Assembly: GCA_045046645.1 (NCBI GenBank)
Contig: JASFZD010000130.1
Coordinates: forward strand, 1-20,174
Reading direction: 5' to 3'
DNA: 20,174 nucleotides
DNA from: Sulfurimonas sp.
GTDB lineage: Bacteria; Campylobacterota; Campylobacteria; Campylobacterales; Sulfurimonadaceae
The notes beneath the pieces were generated by a model. The model did no database searches. It saw only the letters and a list, made by a program, of their open reading frames with translations, and was not told the DNA's origin. The position numbers and the translations under genes were made by a program. Shown in pieces: positions 1,534 through 5,198 of the stretch. Positions within the stretch are counted from its first letter, which is position 1. Each line of letters starts with the position of its first letter.

Positions 1534-3639
1534 TCAATATACACTAACACTATTTTTAGACCATATCAAACAAACCGTAGGCATCCAATTTCTATCTTTA
1601 TACATCTTTTTCTTACTATCTAAATCTATAGAAGATGGATTAGATGAACTATTAGGATGACTATGCCAAGTTCCTAATTGAGTTATCATTTCAGCAGAAG
1701 ATTTTTCAATAGATTTTAGCTTGTCACTTAAACACTTAACGCCAGAATAAAATTTACTTTTACCTCTTTCACTATCTTGAGGAGCTTCTATTTGTCCTGT
1801 AATAACTATTGTTTGTGTTGGTATAGAAATATGTCCTATTAAAATTCCACCCGTTTCTAAATCATTCCATTTTTTAGATTCTATATTTATCTCATCTAAA
1901 ACATTTTGAAATATTCTTATTTCCCAGTCTTCGCCTTGAGGACCTTTAATTGATTTTACACTTAACGGCTTAATGTCAGTAGTTTTCCAAGACATACCTA
2001 AACTATGTTCGTCCATTATTCCAAGTAAAAATTCTCCATTATCACTAAAACCATTATCTATTTTACTTTGAATTAAATTTGACATACCTGCTGATGATAT
2101 TGAAATTGTAGCATCTGAACAAATTGTAGTAAACGAACCACAGCCTTGTCCTAGACTTTGATAAGTAGCATGTGTATCAGTAATTCTTTTTGCTATTTCA
2201 TTATCTTCTGTACATTTTTGATACATTAAAGAGATAATATCTATTATTTTAACTTCTCTATTTTTGCCCTCCACCCCAATAAAAGCAATAGTTCCATTGT
2301 TGTACAATGATGTATGTATTAGTCTGCCTTCAAACTCTTTTTTTGTTAAGTAATTATTTACGGACAAACTTGCTGTCGAGTCTATAATAATATCTCCATC
2401 AGTTGTTTTAAAATCACCTATATCAAAAATATTTTTAGAAATAGAATTAACATTATTCAAACCAATTTCTTGCATAGCTTTTTGAAGCAATTCAACTTTT
2501 AAATTAAGTGAAGATGATGAGAAGAGTGCATGTCTTGCATTGTTATTTGGGACAAAATATTTTTCATCTATTAGTTTAAAATTATCATTTCCATTTCGAG
2601 CTAAATGTAGTGCAATTTTTGAACCTAAAGAACCACAACCAATTTGCATTATCACTTGATTTTCTTTTGTAACTTGATTTGCTCCTGAAAACTGTTGCAA
2701 TAGTTTTGTATCTGAAAAATTTAATCCTGATAAAATACTTACATTAGCATTTTGGTGAACTCCATTTTTTTTCTTCTTGTGTTTTTTTAACTCTAATGCA
2801 AAATGTAAAATCTCCATATCTGAATAAGTTCCTATAACGGTATATGGTCTTTTAATAAACAATGAAAGGAATAGAATTTGTACTTTTTCTTTGATAAGTT
2901 GTTTAAAATTTTTATTTATTGATTCTTTAAAATAATCAATATTATTTTGTTTTGTAAATTCAACTAATTTAACAAAATTATTGATACTATTTGGCATATA
3001 TTCATCAGATACTTTGTTTGAAGAAAAACAAAACATGTAACTATTTTTAAAATTTTCATTTTCTATTTTTGGAACTCTAGCAATTAAAATTTTTTCAAGT
3101 TTTTTATATGATATTTCAGTTGCAAAGTTTTCTTTACAATTTGAAAGTAAATTTTCTCTATCATAGACTAAGAACCCATTATTATCATCAACCCTCATTG
3201 GTTCCCATCCTTGTACCGGATTTATAAGAGAATTAGAAGCAGATGTTTCCAGCCAATCAATAAGCTGGTCTAATATTCCATCCATCCATAATGGTTGCTG
3301 AAGTAATTCATCAACAGAACCTTCAAAAATACAAGGATTAAATTTATCTGTAATAGGGTTAATATGAGGAAAATTTCTATTAAAATCATCCCTTAAATAT
3401 ACTTTAGGTGCTTTGTATGGAAACTCTTTAGGAAATTCTAAAGTTACTTTTTCTAAATCTTTAACACCTTTATCCGTTTGAGATTTTACTTTATAACTTG
3501 AAGGTAAATTAACTTTTACATCAATATCAAAGCAAACTAAATCCTTATCATTTCTATAGTTATCATATATTTTGATTACCGATTTATGCTCCTCTGCAAA
3601 TTTTCTTGCAAAGGTTATTAAGTACTCATTTTTAACCAT
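1534..3639 (-). CDS. Triple-domain fusion: E2/UBC-like + E1 (ThiF/MoeB-like adenylation) + JAB/JAMM metalloprotease
   Basis: 701 aa. E2-like core: FPHINPITDKFNPC(103)IFEG, the HPN...Cys pattern (DNA about 3145-3639). E1 Rossmann domain: IGCGSLGS (aa 333-340), LIDEKYFVPNNNARH, IIIDSTAS (about 2050-2680). JAMM: E595-TGGILIGH and H659-S-H661-PNSSSNP-S669-SI-D672, i.e. HxHx7Sx2D (about 1537-1917). The start ATG overlaps the MBL gene stop by 8 nt. Confidence 0.8.
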   Translation of the reverse strand: MVKNEYLITFARKFAEEHKSVIKIYDNYRNDKDLVCFDIDVKVNLPSSYKVKSQTDKGVKDLEKVTLEFPKEFPYKAPKVYLRDDFNRNFPHINPITDKFNPCIFEGSVDELLQQPLWMDGILDQLIDWLETSASNSLINPVQGWEPMRVDDNNGFLVYDRENLLSNCKENFATEISYKKLEKILIARVPKIENENFKNSYMFCFSSNKVSDEYMPNSINNFVKLVEFTKQNNIDYFKESINKNFKQLIKEKVQILFLSLFIKRPYTVIGTYSDMEILHFALELKKHKKKKNGVHQNANVSILSGLNFSDTKLLQQFSGANQVTKENQVIMQIGCGSLGSKIALHLARNGNDNFKLIDEKYFVPNNNARHALFSSSSLNLKVELLQKAMQEIGLNNVNSISKNIFDIGDFKTTDGDIIIDSTASLSVNNYLTKKEFEGRLIHTSLYNNGTIAFIGVEGKNREVKIIDIISLMYQKCTEDNEIAKRITDTHATYQSLGQGCGSFTTICSDATISISSAGMSNLIQSKIDNGFSDNGEFLLGIMDEHSLGMSWKTTDIKPLSVKSIKGPQGEDWEIRIFQNVLDEINIESKKWNDLETGGILIGHISIPTQTIVITGQIEAPQDSERGKSKFYSGVKCLSDKLKSIEKSSAEMITQLGTWHSHPNSSSNPSSIDLDSKKKMYKDRNWMPTVCLIWSKNSVSVY

Positions 3640-4774
3640 GAGGATAAATATTTTTAGATGATGATTCTGTAGCAGTTGCTACTTTACTTTTAGAACCACC
3701 ATTTTTTAATTGAGTTCCACCTGATGTAAATTCAATGACTATAGGTTCAATACTACTTTTTTTAGGATATTCTCCTGTACATAAGAAATCATCTTTTCTG
3801 TTATTGATAATTTTAATATATTCTTGTTTAGCTTCATAATGAGGAGGATTGTTTTCATCATCTAAAATTTCTTTACTACTTGAAATTATAGTTGCTCCAC
3901 TTTTGGCATGAGATAAAGTCTTTTTTGCATCTTTAGATATTTCATATCCACCTTTTTTACTTTTATCTTTTTTTCGACCTAAACTAGCCATAGAACAATG
4001 ATGAGGAGTACATAAAATATCATATTCTAATTTATTACTATCATATATATCATTCATATATTCGCATACATCTACTTCTGCATCTCCTGTTAATAGAACT
4101 TTATTAGTATAATTACCCACTGTAATTTCCAATTGTAAAATTATGCTCCCACGATTTTTAGCATCAAAGGTTTCTTTATCTTCATTCTCTTGTTGTTCTA
4201 ATGGTCCTAAAATGTTGATTTTAAAATTATCTAAATTTTTACTATTCACTTTAGATATAGTTTTCCCTATTTCATAAGTAATATTTTTTATCTCTTCGTC
4301 ATCTCCTCCAACTATAATAACTCTATTTCCTTCTTCTTGAACTCTCTTTTTTTCTTTATATAATTTCACTCTTCTTTTTATCTCTTGATTGTATGCTTTT
4401 GCATCATCTGAAAAGTTTCTATCATCAGTTTGTCTTTGCCTGAATCTATCTGAACTCCAAGTCTCTTTGATAACTATTTTTTCATCATCTTTGTAGTCAT
4501 CAATATGTCCTAAATAAAAATTATCTCTCAACCCTCCTATGTGATCATGGTCTAAATGTGTTAATAGAAAAGCATCTACAAAATATCTACCATTACTATC
4601 TTTTTCTAAATTATCTTTTAAATGAGACAAAACATCATAAAATTCTTCTTCATTATCATTATGAGATTTTTTTCTTATATGTATATCTATTAAAATAGTT
4701 GTATTGTCTTTTAACTTTAGAAGTATCATATTCCCATTATCCACAGGATAAAATATTATTTTTGATTTACTCAT
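3632..4774 (-). CDS. Metallo-beta-lactamase-fold hydrolase, ComEC/Rec2-style motif set (putative nuclease effector)
   Basis: 380 aa. Motifs: TILIDI, LLTHLDHDHIGG (an HxDxDHxGG variant of HxHxDH), VLLTGDAE, LCTPHHCS (resembles the HHGS motif of ComEC-type MBL domains). C-terminal tail ...TQLKNGG-SKSKVATATESSSKNIYPHG ends in Gly. Coupled to both neighbours by 8-nt overlaps. Confidence 0.78.
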   Translation of the reverse strand: MSKSKIIFYPVDNGNMILLKLKDNTTILIDIHIRKKSHNDNEEEFYDVLSHLKDNLEKDSNGRYFVDAFLLTHLDHDHIGGLRDNFYLGHIDDYKDDEKIVIKETWSSDRFRQRQTDDRNFSDDAKAYNQEIKRRVKLYKEKKRVQEEGNRVIIVGGDDEEIKNITYEIGKTISKVNSKNLDNFKINILGPLEQQENEDKETFDAKNRGSIILQLEITVGNYTNKVLLTGDAEVDVCEYMNDIYDSNKLEYDILCTPHHCSMASLGRKKDKSKKGGYEISKDAKKTLSHAKSGATIISSSKEILDDENNPPHYEAKQEYIKIINNRKDDFLCTGEYPKKSSIEPIVIEFTSGGTQLKNGGSKSKVATATESSSKNIYPHG

Positions 4775-5198
4775 TTTCTTTGTCCTTGTTTTGTTTATTT
4801 GTAAAAAATTCTACTCGTTGAGTGATATAACTTGTTTGTTTCCTATATGAAAATAAAAAAAGTATTAATAGTCCAGTAATTGCTATATAGCTTGTATATC
4901 CTGTTAATATATCTTGTAAATACTTTTCATATAAAATAACTATTATTAAAATGAAAAATGAAGATATAAATACTCGATACATATTATTTGATTCAGACAG
5001 CAATTCAATTTTTTTGTCACTTTTAGATGCTAAAACAAAATCTTTATATTCAGTAAATTTAACAAATCCAACTTTCTTCAAACATGGTTCAATAATTATC
5101 GAGCTAATTCTGCTAATCACTAACCCTATAAAATAAGCCAAAAAAGCTTCAATTAGCATATCTTTATGAATTATTGAATAACTTGTTATCTTCTCCAA
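4767..5198 (-). CDS. Small integral membrane protein, first gene of the MBL/E2-E1-JAB operon
   Basis: 143 aa with about 3 hydrophobic helices (LIEAFLAYFIGLVISRISSIII, VFISSFFILIIVILY, YIAITGLLILFLFSY). The 8-nt overlap with the MBL start supports a real gene. The start is uncertain: 5198 is a TTG without a clear SD, and ATG at 5159 is an alternative. Confidence 0.55.
   Translation of the reverse strand: MEKITSYSIIHKDMLIEAFLAYFIGLVISRISSIIIEPCLKKVGFVKFTEYKDFVLASKSDKKIELLSESNNMYRVFISSFFILIIVILYEKYLQDILTGYTSYIAITGLLILFLFSYRKQTSYITQRVEFFTNKQNKDKENE

Follow-up and report, generated by a model that had tools for sequence, protein, structure and literature searches.

Gene content and identity of the operon

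The locus described here is a three-gene operon of Sulfurimonas sp. (NCBI GenBank assembly GCA_045046645.1, contig JASFZD010000130.1, positions 1 to 20,174 of the forward strand); the whole stretch of 20,174 nucleotides that was analysed is referred to as the window. [quoted passage not shown] Successive genes overlap by 8 nt. At 4767-4774 (minus strand) the membrane gene stops and the MBL gene starts within the sequence ATGAGTAA, an arrangement indicative of translational coupling, and at 3632-3639 (minus strand) the sequence ATGGTTAA holds the His-Gly-stop codons of the MBL gene together with the start of the fusion gene. A preliminary description of the same DNA had noted three minus-strand genes joined by two 8-nt overlaps, and these are present as described, the start of the membrane gene being a separate matter that is considered below.

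Both core proteins were found to exceed the cut-offs of equivalog-level NCBIfam models. The fusion protein matched NF058523 ('anti-phage 6A-MBL system cap2_3 protein') with 461.1 bits against a cut-off of 320, over residues 54-692, and the MBL protein matched NF058524 ('anti-phage 6A-MBL system MBL-fold protein') with 344.6 bits against a cut-off of 220. Since Pfam, PADLOC and PDB searches agree with these assignments, the gene pair is conserved and the literature names the system, the locus is identified as a 6A-MBL anti-phage system in a Sulfurimonas defence island, of which it is a member by every feature examined. It shares with other 6A-MBL loci its two core genes and their order (MBL then E2-E1-JAB), with the catalytic residues all kept, but the fusion protein is only 26-41% identical to those of the loci recovered from outside the Campylobacterota, and the window adds an overlapping upstream gene of the PDC-M48A membrane protein family, which matches no NCBIfam model.

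The system was reportedly named 6A-MBL by van den Berg and colleagues in 2024, who are said to have reported it as anti-phage. The operon type had been predicted in 2006 by Iyer, Burroughs and Aravind, in whose Table 1 it forms row 6a, the origin of the name, and where it is described as 'usually two genes' (PMC1779556). A passage of the review PMC13276650 credits van den Berg et al. (2024) with the anti-phage activity of 6A-MBL in Pseudomonas aeruginosa, and a passage of a recent preprint (bioRxiv 10.1101/2025.09.30.679545) counts 6A-MBL among known jumbo phage defense systems. This kind of system is already known, and the window operon is a further copy of it, from a low-GC metagenome-assembled genome (MAG) of Campylobacterota type. 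The suggestion in the preliminary description that the operon was a candidate uncharacterised system was not borne out, given the existing name, the 2006 prediction, the NCBIfam equivalog models and the later papers that cite its activity. Its mention of comparative-genomic surveys that noted MBL-linked E1/E2/JAB neighbourhoods proved right, the source being row 6a of Iyer et al. (PMC1779556).

The cap2_3 protein (1534-3639, minus strand, 701 aa) was recognised as a single-chain E2-E1-JAB fusion by NCBIfam, Pfam, PADLOC and PDB profile searches, with Prok-E2_A, ThiF and Prok-JAB matched in that order and each above the Pfam gathering cut-off. The E2 (UBC-like) domain occupies residues 37-157 (3169-3531, minus strand; Prok-E2_A, E = 1.4e-22) and contains H92 and the catalytic C103. 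The E1 adenylation domain (2050-2697, minus strand; ThiF, E = 8e-8, with a Pfam core at residues 315-432) contains the GCGSLGS motif, R369 and D420, and reaches to C500. The JAB/JAMM metallopeptidase domain occupies residues 579-687 (1579-1905, minus strand; Prok-JAB, E = 3e-9) and contains E595, H659, H661, S669 and D672. In an alignment of 16 homologues, down to 35% identity, H92, C103, GCGSLGS, R369, C500, E595, H659, H661, S669 and D672 are invariant, and D420 is nearly so, falling in the conservation class of at least 90%; C500 is a candidate for the E1 cysteine. In PADLOC, the E1-E2 model was matched, as was the JAB model at 1.3e-21, and the JAB part of the protein also matched the NCBIfam Cap3 model at 1.2e-7. 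When a profile of the homologues was searched against the PDB, the E1 part matched Cap2 chains (7tsq, 7tsx and 7to3) at about 1e-9, with residues 324-433 aligned by both Cap2 and MccB chains, and the C-terminal part matched 9ild, a JAB peptidase of 156 residues, at 3.5e-13. The earlier E2, E1 and JAB calls, and the residues listed for them, are upheld by these Pfam matches and by the invariance of those residues among the homologues.

The MBL protein (3632-4774, minus strand, 380 aa) matches Pfam Lactamase_B at 2e-6 in addition to NF058524, and its metal-site motifs (H73xDxD77H78, D231 and H258-H259-C260-S261) are invariant in the alignments. An AlphaFold2 model, calculated with 26 homologues in the alignment, had a mean predicted local distance difference test score (pLDDT) of 85 and a predicted template modelling score (pTM) of 0.87. 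The best match of this model in the PDB by Foldseek was the beta-lactamase-like domain of ComEC (9ic4; E = 2.2e-12, with a template modelling score of 0.70 for the target), and the next matches, an arylsulfatase, PhnP and PNGM-1, were at 2e-6. Weak profile matches were obtained to ComEC/Rec2 (NCBIfam TIGR00361, 19.6 bits against a cut-off of 190) and, in PADLOC, to the models for LmuA, Avs1a and the reverse transcriptase (RT)-associated MBL (RTasMBL) only; no PADLOC model of PDC-M48B matched the window MBL. Because the ComEC domain outranks all other structural matches by a wide margin and is accompanied by the weak ComEC/Rec2, Avs1a, LmuA and RT-MBL profile matches, the most economical reading of the predicted fold and its context is that the protein is probably a metal-dependent nuclease. 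The ComEC-type assignment put forward previously is accordingly in line with the Lactamase_B match, the Foldseek result and the conserved motifs. The likeness to the ComEC/Rec2 domain extends to an HxDxDH-type metal motif common to both, and, as in ComEC, the MBL domain would here work with membrane-spanning helices. The window MBL, however, is a separate soluble protein whose fold is approximately 110 residues larger, which bears a proposed conjugation tail and which is only 14% identical in sequence; it lacks the competence channel and OB fold, with no Pfam match to Competence or DUF4131, and only the MBL fold is common to the two.

Neither the operon nor its flanks contain an ORF of the size of a beta-grasp ubiquitin-like protein (Ubl), since ORFs between the genes reach 34 aa at most, and none of the scanned window proteins matched a CD-NTase or SMODS model in Pfam, NCBIfam or PADLOC. 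Nothing in Rfam was matched in the window, and a scan for promoters and terminators gave results at the level of chance for such AT-rich DNA.

Conservation of the gene pair and predicted conjugation of the MBL protein

The distribution of the system was surveyed with one genome per species, which yielded 80 related loci spanning Campylobacterota, Bacillota, Spirochaetia, Planctomycetota, Bacteroidota, Cyanobacteria, Acidobacteriota, many Proteobacteria and one archaeal MAG. A 6A-type MBL gene lies directly upstream of the fusion gene in 75 of these. Of the other five, three run into the end of their contig (L010, L016 and L050), one has no fusion ORF called (L070) and one has neither a fusion nor a 6A-type MBL ORF called (L079). 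The pair occurs on plasmids too, for example Acinetobacter pNDM1_010045 and Clostridium perfringens pCPCPI63K. In one locus from a Sulfurovaceae MAG (L031, 6150-7778) the fusion is split into three ORFs downstream of intact PDC-M48B, PDC-M48A and 6A-type MBL genes, which may reflect decay of this copy or a fault in the assembly. The co-occurrence that had been proposed as a check on homologues of the fusion was therefore found for the MBL gene; for the membrane gene it was found in 69 of the 80 loci, but with a family that varies from locus to locus, as is described in the following section.

The C-terminus of the MBL protein has several features that bear on its relationship with the adjoining ligase. 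Residues 360-380 (3635-3697, minus strand) form a tail that is predicted to be disordered, with a pLDDT of approximately 30 in the AlphaFold2 model, and that ends in His379-Gly380, the proposed site of E1 adenylation and conjugation. Both H379 and G380 are invariant in the homologue alignments. Among 111 full-length homologues, the protein ends exactly in His-Gly in 81, a further 28 have His-Gly followed by between one and nine residues (R, K, RK, KK, SA, NSGE, SPRGRRGGA and others), and two differ. The codons for His-Gly-stop, CAT-GGT-TAA, contain the ATG of the fusion gene, and the dipeptide could in principle be a mere by-product of that overlap. This explanation was rejected, since His-Gly is also retained by loci with separated genes and by those in which, after extension of the tail, the overlap is one of 4 nt. 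MBL paralogues from the same neighbourhoods that are not read into a ligase, namely PDC-M48B-type proteins and second copies, have unrelated, mostly acidic tails without His-Gly. A disordered tail that ends in glycine, that is sometimes precursor-like and that is encoded beside E1-E2 and JAMM modules would constitute the signature of a ubiquitin-like substrate, and the tail, its extensions and its absence from unpaired paralogues fit adenylation of the MBL C-terminus by the E1 domain and trimming by the JAB domain. The features of the MBL tail match those established for the CD-NTases on which Cap2 and Cap3 act.

By analogy with Cap2 and Cap3 of type II CBASS (an anti-phage signalling system based on cyclic oligonucleotides), the E1 domain would adenylate the C-terminal Gly380 of the MBL protein, which would be handed on as a thioester to C500 and then to C103 of the E2 domain, and finally be joined to a lysine on a target, thereby priming or relocating the putative nuclease effector. 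The JAB domain, on the same analogy, may remove MBL conjugates and trim the extensions of one to nine residues that follow His-Gly in relatives, with the membrane protein either anchoring the MBL protein or serving as its target. The conjugation model is favoured because the tail is disordered, because His-Gly is invariant, with extensions, and absent from unpaired MBL proteins, because the catalytic residues are conserved, and because MBL pathways are described as conjugating their enzyme to unknown targets (PMC11601596). A working hypothesis of this form, in which the MBL C-terminus is conjugated in the manner of Cap2 substrates, the JAB domain reverses or processes the product and a membrane partner takes part, had been offered in the preliminary description; it agrees with these data and with PMC11601596, and is retained here as a model.

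The E2, E1 and JAB modules are homologous to Cap2 and Cap3, as judged from the PDB matches to Cap2 and the NCBIfam match to Cap3 given above, and as in type II CBASS the partner enzyme would take the place of ubiquitin by way of a flexible C-terminal tail that ends in a small residue. The window differs from type II CBASS in having the three modules in one chain and an MBL hydrolase as partner instead of a CD-NTase; neither a cyclase nor a recognised CBASS-type effector was found among the scanned window proteins. The Bil and Bub systems likewise combine E1 and E2 with a deconjugating peptidase, in settings of defence or mobile elements, but they have a separate beta-grasp Ubl and separate E1 and E2 proteins, whereas the window has no Ubl-sized ORF. 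The operon is therefore neither a type II CBASS, since there is no CD-NTase, nor a Bil/Bub system, since there is no Ubl, a distinction that had been drawn correctly at the outset.

The membrane protein, its counterparts and the genomic setting

The membrane gene had been placed at 4767-5198, with a TTG start at 5198, a setting that proved to be incorrect. The frame is open upstream of this TTG and encodes KLLDKISEYNLFNYLLPGIIFSVLLEK, a segment to which the N-terminus and first helix of every homologue can be aligned, and the column of the initiating methionine corresponds to ATA at 5276-5274. The gene is consequently 4767-5276 (minus strand), encoding 169 aa from ATA, an extent supported by the open frame, the homologous N-terminus and the PADLOC match to PDC-M48A (E = 3.8e-47). 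A GGAG Shine-Dalgarno element lies at 5283-5286 (minus strand), 6 nt upstream of the start, and the same element precedes an ATG in L081, a metagenomic contig that differs from the window at 15 of 3767 nt across the operon (99.6% identity) and has ATG at the position of the ATA. The 143-aa version from TTG 5198 that appears in the public record (P0243) lacks the first transmembrane helix, and is a consequence of the ATG-to-ATA difference. The ATA could represent weak non-canonical initiation, incipient gene loss or an error in the MAG consensus, and with ATA in place of ATG the membrane gene may be poorly expressed from the window sequence. Decay specific to the membrane gene was considered and rejected, since the non-synonymous and synonymous differences from L081, with the ATA site left aside, are similarly mixed in all three genes (3:1 for the membrane gene, 4:2 for the MBL gene and 3:1 for the fusion gene).

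The PADLOC match to PDC-M48A covers profile positions 28-161 only; the full-length relative in L001 matches profile positions 1-163 at 2.7e-63. The family comprises 1918 clusters with a mean column identity of 61% across phyla. An AlphaFold2 model of the window protein is all-helical, with a pLDDT of 81, and Foldseek found nothing in the PDB with an E-value below 1.

Across the survey, a member of one of four membrane-protein families was found in 69 of the 80 loci, in most cases abutting the MBL-fusion pair and in all cases within approximately 2.4 kb of it. Of the remaining 11, seven offer too little sequence for a decision, and in four (L022, L025, L045 and L075) none of the four families is present. 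The most frequent is a multi-pass family of about 240 aa (alignment A5), present in approximately 50 of the 80 loci and characterised by the motifs YEIKARYxP, FPTT and YNIRYGFxRNL, whose gene may stand upstream of the MBL gene, just after the fusion gene, after a second MBL gene or beside a divergent WYL-domain regulator; examples are at L015:1534-2256, L041:2995-3783 (minus strand), L073:8298-9020 and, in plasmid loci, L090:988-1776 and L091:1910-2638. An L054-type family is linked to the A5 family by jackhmmer, an L028-type family accounts for 13 loci, and the PDC-M48A type occurs in L001, L003, L013 and L031 as well as in the window's own clade. Scanned representatives of the families other than PDC-M48A gave no match in Pfam, NCBIfam or PADLOC. 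The possibility that the families form one superfamily was examined and is unsupported, with hhalign probabilities of 0.3% for alignment A4 against A5, 0.4% for A4 against A6 and 17% for A5 against A6, and the membrane proteins thus fall into at least three families. In the clade to which the window belongs, the PDC-M48A, MBL and fusion genes follow one another in this order down to a fusion identity of 55% (L092), and the three-gene order is seen also in loci from Spirochaetia and Ignavibacteriales; at 43% fusion identity (L093) the slot is held by a protein of 241 aa, the size of the A5 family. In many beta- and gammaproteobacterial 6A-MBL loci, a second MBL gene of PDC-M48B type (356 aa, PADLOC 1e-153), without His-Gly, stands right after the fusion gene, and in L029, L034-L036, L038-L044, L047, L052 and the plasmid locus L090, all of beta- or gammaproteobacterial origin, a divergent WYL-domain regulator is followed by the membrane gene.

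PDC-M48 is an uncharacterised candidate system in PADLOC, and the first gene of the window operon is a clear PDC-M48A, which here too has an MBL-fold protein as its partner. The B proteins of PDC-M48 are distant relatives of the 6A-MBL enzyme, and the MBL partners examined in 6A-MBL loci L014, L031 and L041 match PDC-M48B models. The window MBL itself, by contrast, matches no PDC-M48B model and carries the His-Gly tail that is absent from the B proteins, and PDC-M48 loci have no ligase. Three unrelated contigs (L084:3258-5489, L086:2115-5489 and L088:339-2752) have PDC-M48A beside a Lactamase_B gene of 350-361 aa without a ligase, and in each a gene for a LexA-like repressor (LexA_DNA_bind and Peptidase_S24) is close by, which suggests SOS-type control of the PDC-M48 candidate system. 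Given the 8-nt overlap, the conserved order, the presence of a membrane gene in 69 of 80 loci and the pairing of PDC-M48A with MBL genes in loci that lack the ligase, we infer that this small multi-pass protein is a membrane partner of the MBL protein, acting as its anchor or its target.

The operon is located among further defence genes, as had been proposed initially; its neighbours are an MntA/HepT toxin-antitoxin pair, GmrSD (type IV restriction) and a type I restriction-modification operon (HsdR/S/M). The stop codon of GmrSD precedes the membrane gene's start by only 15 nt (5292-5276), on the same strand, and since the gap is so short the two may be co-transcribed; the junction is kept in L081-L083. 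A SieB-like superinfection-exclusion gene (Pfam SieB, 3.4e-21) lies at 10189-10734 (minus strand), between hsdR and hsdS, a slot that in L081 holds different cargo, including a Fic-domain gene. Three overlapping genes at 13667-19875 (minus strand) are probably the mobility module of the island; they encode a protein of 1394 aa with a C-terminal tyrosine-recombinase match only, a protein of 209 aa with no matches and a tyrosine recombinase of 471 aa with a weak match to GmtY of the gamma-mobile-trio. Approximately 80 nt past the stop of the fusion gene there is a perfect AT-only palindrome with 18-nt arms (1415-1432 and 1437-1454), one arm of which recurs at 502-519, so that copies of TATGATATAATA, which resembles an extended -10 element, stand on either side of the MntA/HepT cassette. 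The homology with L081 breaks off near 1359, and this point marks a breakpoint of cargo exchange. An inverted repeat of 27 nt with 81% complementarity (1440-1466 and 19947-19973) encloses the whole segment that runs from the 6A-MBL operon through the recombinase genes, and could represent the ends of the element or a chance occurrence in AT-rich DNA. The GC content of the type I restriction-modification genes (7000-13500) is 35-44%, as opposed to 25-30% for the 6A-MBL operon, GmrSD and the recombinase genes, a contrast that points to a mosaic origin of the island.

Alternative readings and implications

Three other accounts of the operon were weighed against the model in which a 6A-MBL system conjugates its MBL protein in the manner of Cap2 and Cap3 and works with a membrane partner. 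It is conceivable, although somewhat unlikely, that the membrane gene of the window is a passenger or a decaying remnant of PDC-M48 and that the working unit is a two-gene pair, an account that is compatible with the preferred model as far as the MBL and fusion genes are concerned. The published description as 'usually two genes' (PMC1779556) is in its favour, as are the NCBIfam matches, which come from only two 6A-MBL models, one for each core gene, and the arrangement in L031, where PDC-M48B and PDC-M48A lie directly upstream of the pair as if modules had been juxtaposed. The ATA start, where the 99.6%-identical L081 has ATG, and the non-synonymous nature of three of the four other differences from L081 in the membrane gene point in the same direction, but a similar excess is seen in the MBL gene (four of six) and the fusion gene (three of four), so that no specific decay is indicated. 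ATA is moreover an allowed, though weak, bacterial start codon, and here it is preceded by a well-placed GGAG. The 8-nt overlap with the MBL gene and an intact reading frame have been preserved, and the three genes hold their order down to 55% fusion identity as well as in loci from Spirochaetia and Ignavibacteriales. A CBASS-like signalling system, in which the MBL protein makes or destroys a small molecule, the membrane protein is an abortive effector that collapses the membrane and the ligase only tunes the enzyme, is judged to be unlikely. Phosphodiesterases are among the enzymes with an MBL fold. Nearly every locus has a membrane protein, and one family can stand in for another, as with the effectors of CBASS; in PDC-M48A, numerous polar residues within the helices or close to them are invariant, beyond what a passive anchor would need; MBL proteins have also been grouped with 'signaling enzymes' (PMC11601596). 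Set against this, the DNA-processing ComEC domain leads the structural matches by six orders of magnitude, the relatives in defence catalogues are the MBL components of Avs1a, LmuA and RT-associated MBL systems, and no nucleotide-binding domain was found in the scanned membrane representatives with Pfam, NCBIfam or PADLOC, in which only PDC-M48A itself was matched. That the operon is not concerned with defence at all, and has a housekeeping or mobile-element role such as ComEC-related DNA uptake or processing or membrane protein quality control, appears highly improbable. The resemblance of the MBL protein to ComEC and the carriage of the operon on an element with tyrosine recombinases would fit such a role, but the equivalog matches are to models named for anti-phage function, papers list 6A-MBL as phage defence, the operon sits among GmrSD, type I restriction-modification, SieB-like and MntA/HepT genes, its distribution is sporadic across phyla and extends to plasmids, and Pfam gave no match to a ComEC competence or OB-fold domain.

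Several observations also weigh against the model of conjugation with a membrane partner. The ATA start raises the possibility that the membrane gene is dispensable or decaying in this strain, and L022, L025, L045 and L075 lack all of the four membrane families despite having adequate flanks. Since homology between the membrane families is unsupported, their common function is deduced from position only. A predicted fold alone is no proof of nuclease activity, and we know of no biochemical activity of the MBL protein and of no target to which it is conjugated. On balance, the overall explanation, namely 6A-MBL identity combined with Cap2/Cap3-like conjugation of the MBL protein and a membrane partner, is considered likely to be correct.

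A further-reaching version of the model, which is decidedly unlikely at present, is that 6A-MBL systems require, as their third component, a multi-pass membrane protein for which one family can replace another, and that the ligase attaches or recruits the hydrolase to this protein or to a membrane target. Were this so, the nuclease would be stationed at the point of entry of phage DNA, a possible reason for the activity against jumbo phages that shield their DNA at a later stage of infection; the published two-gene descriptions would be incomplete, and PDC-M48 would be a ligase-free version of the same effector module.

What may be new here is the near-universal, exchangeable membrane partner, the specificity of the His-Gly tail and the link with PDC-M48. 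These three features bear on the substrate of the E1 domain, on processing by the JAB domain and on where the target of conjugation should be sought, and the findings tie 6A-MBL to the PADLOC candidate system PDC-M48.

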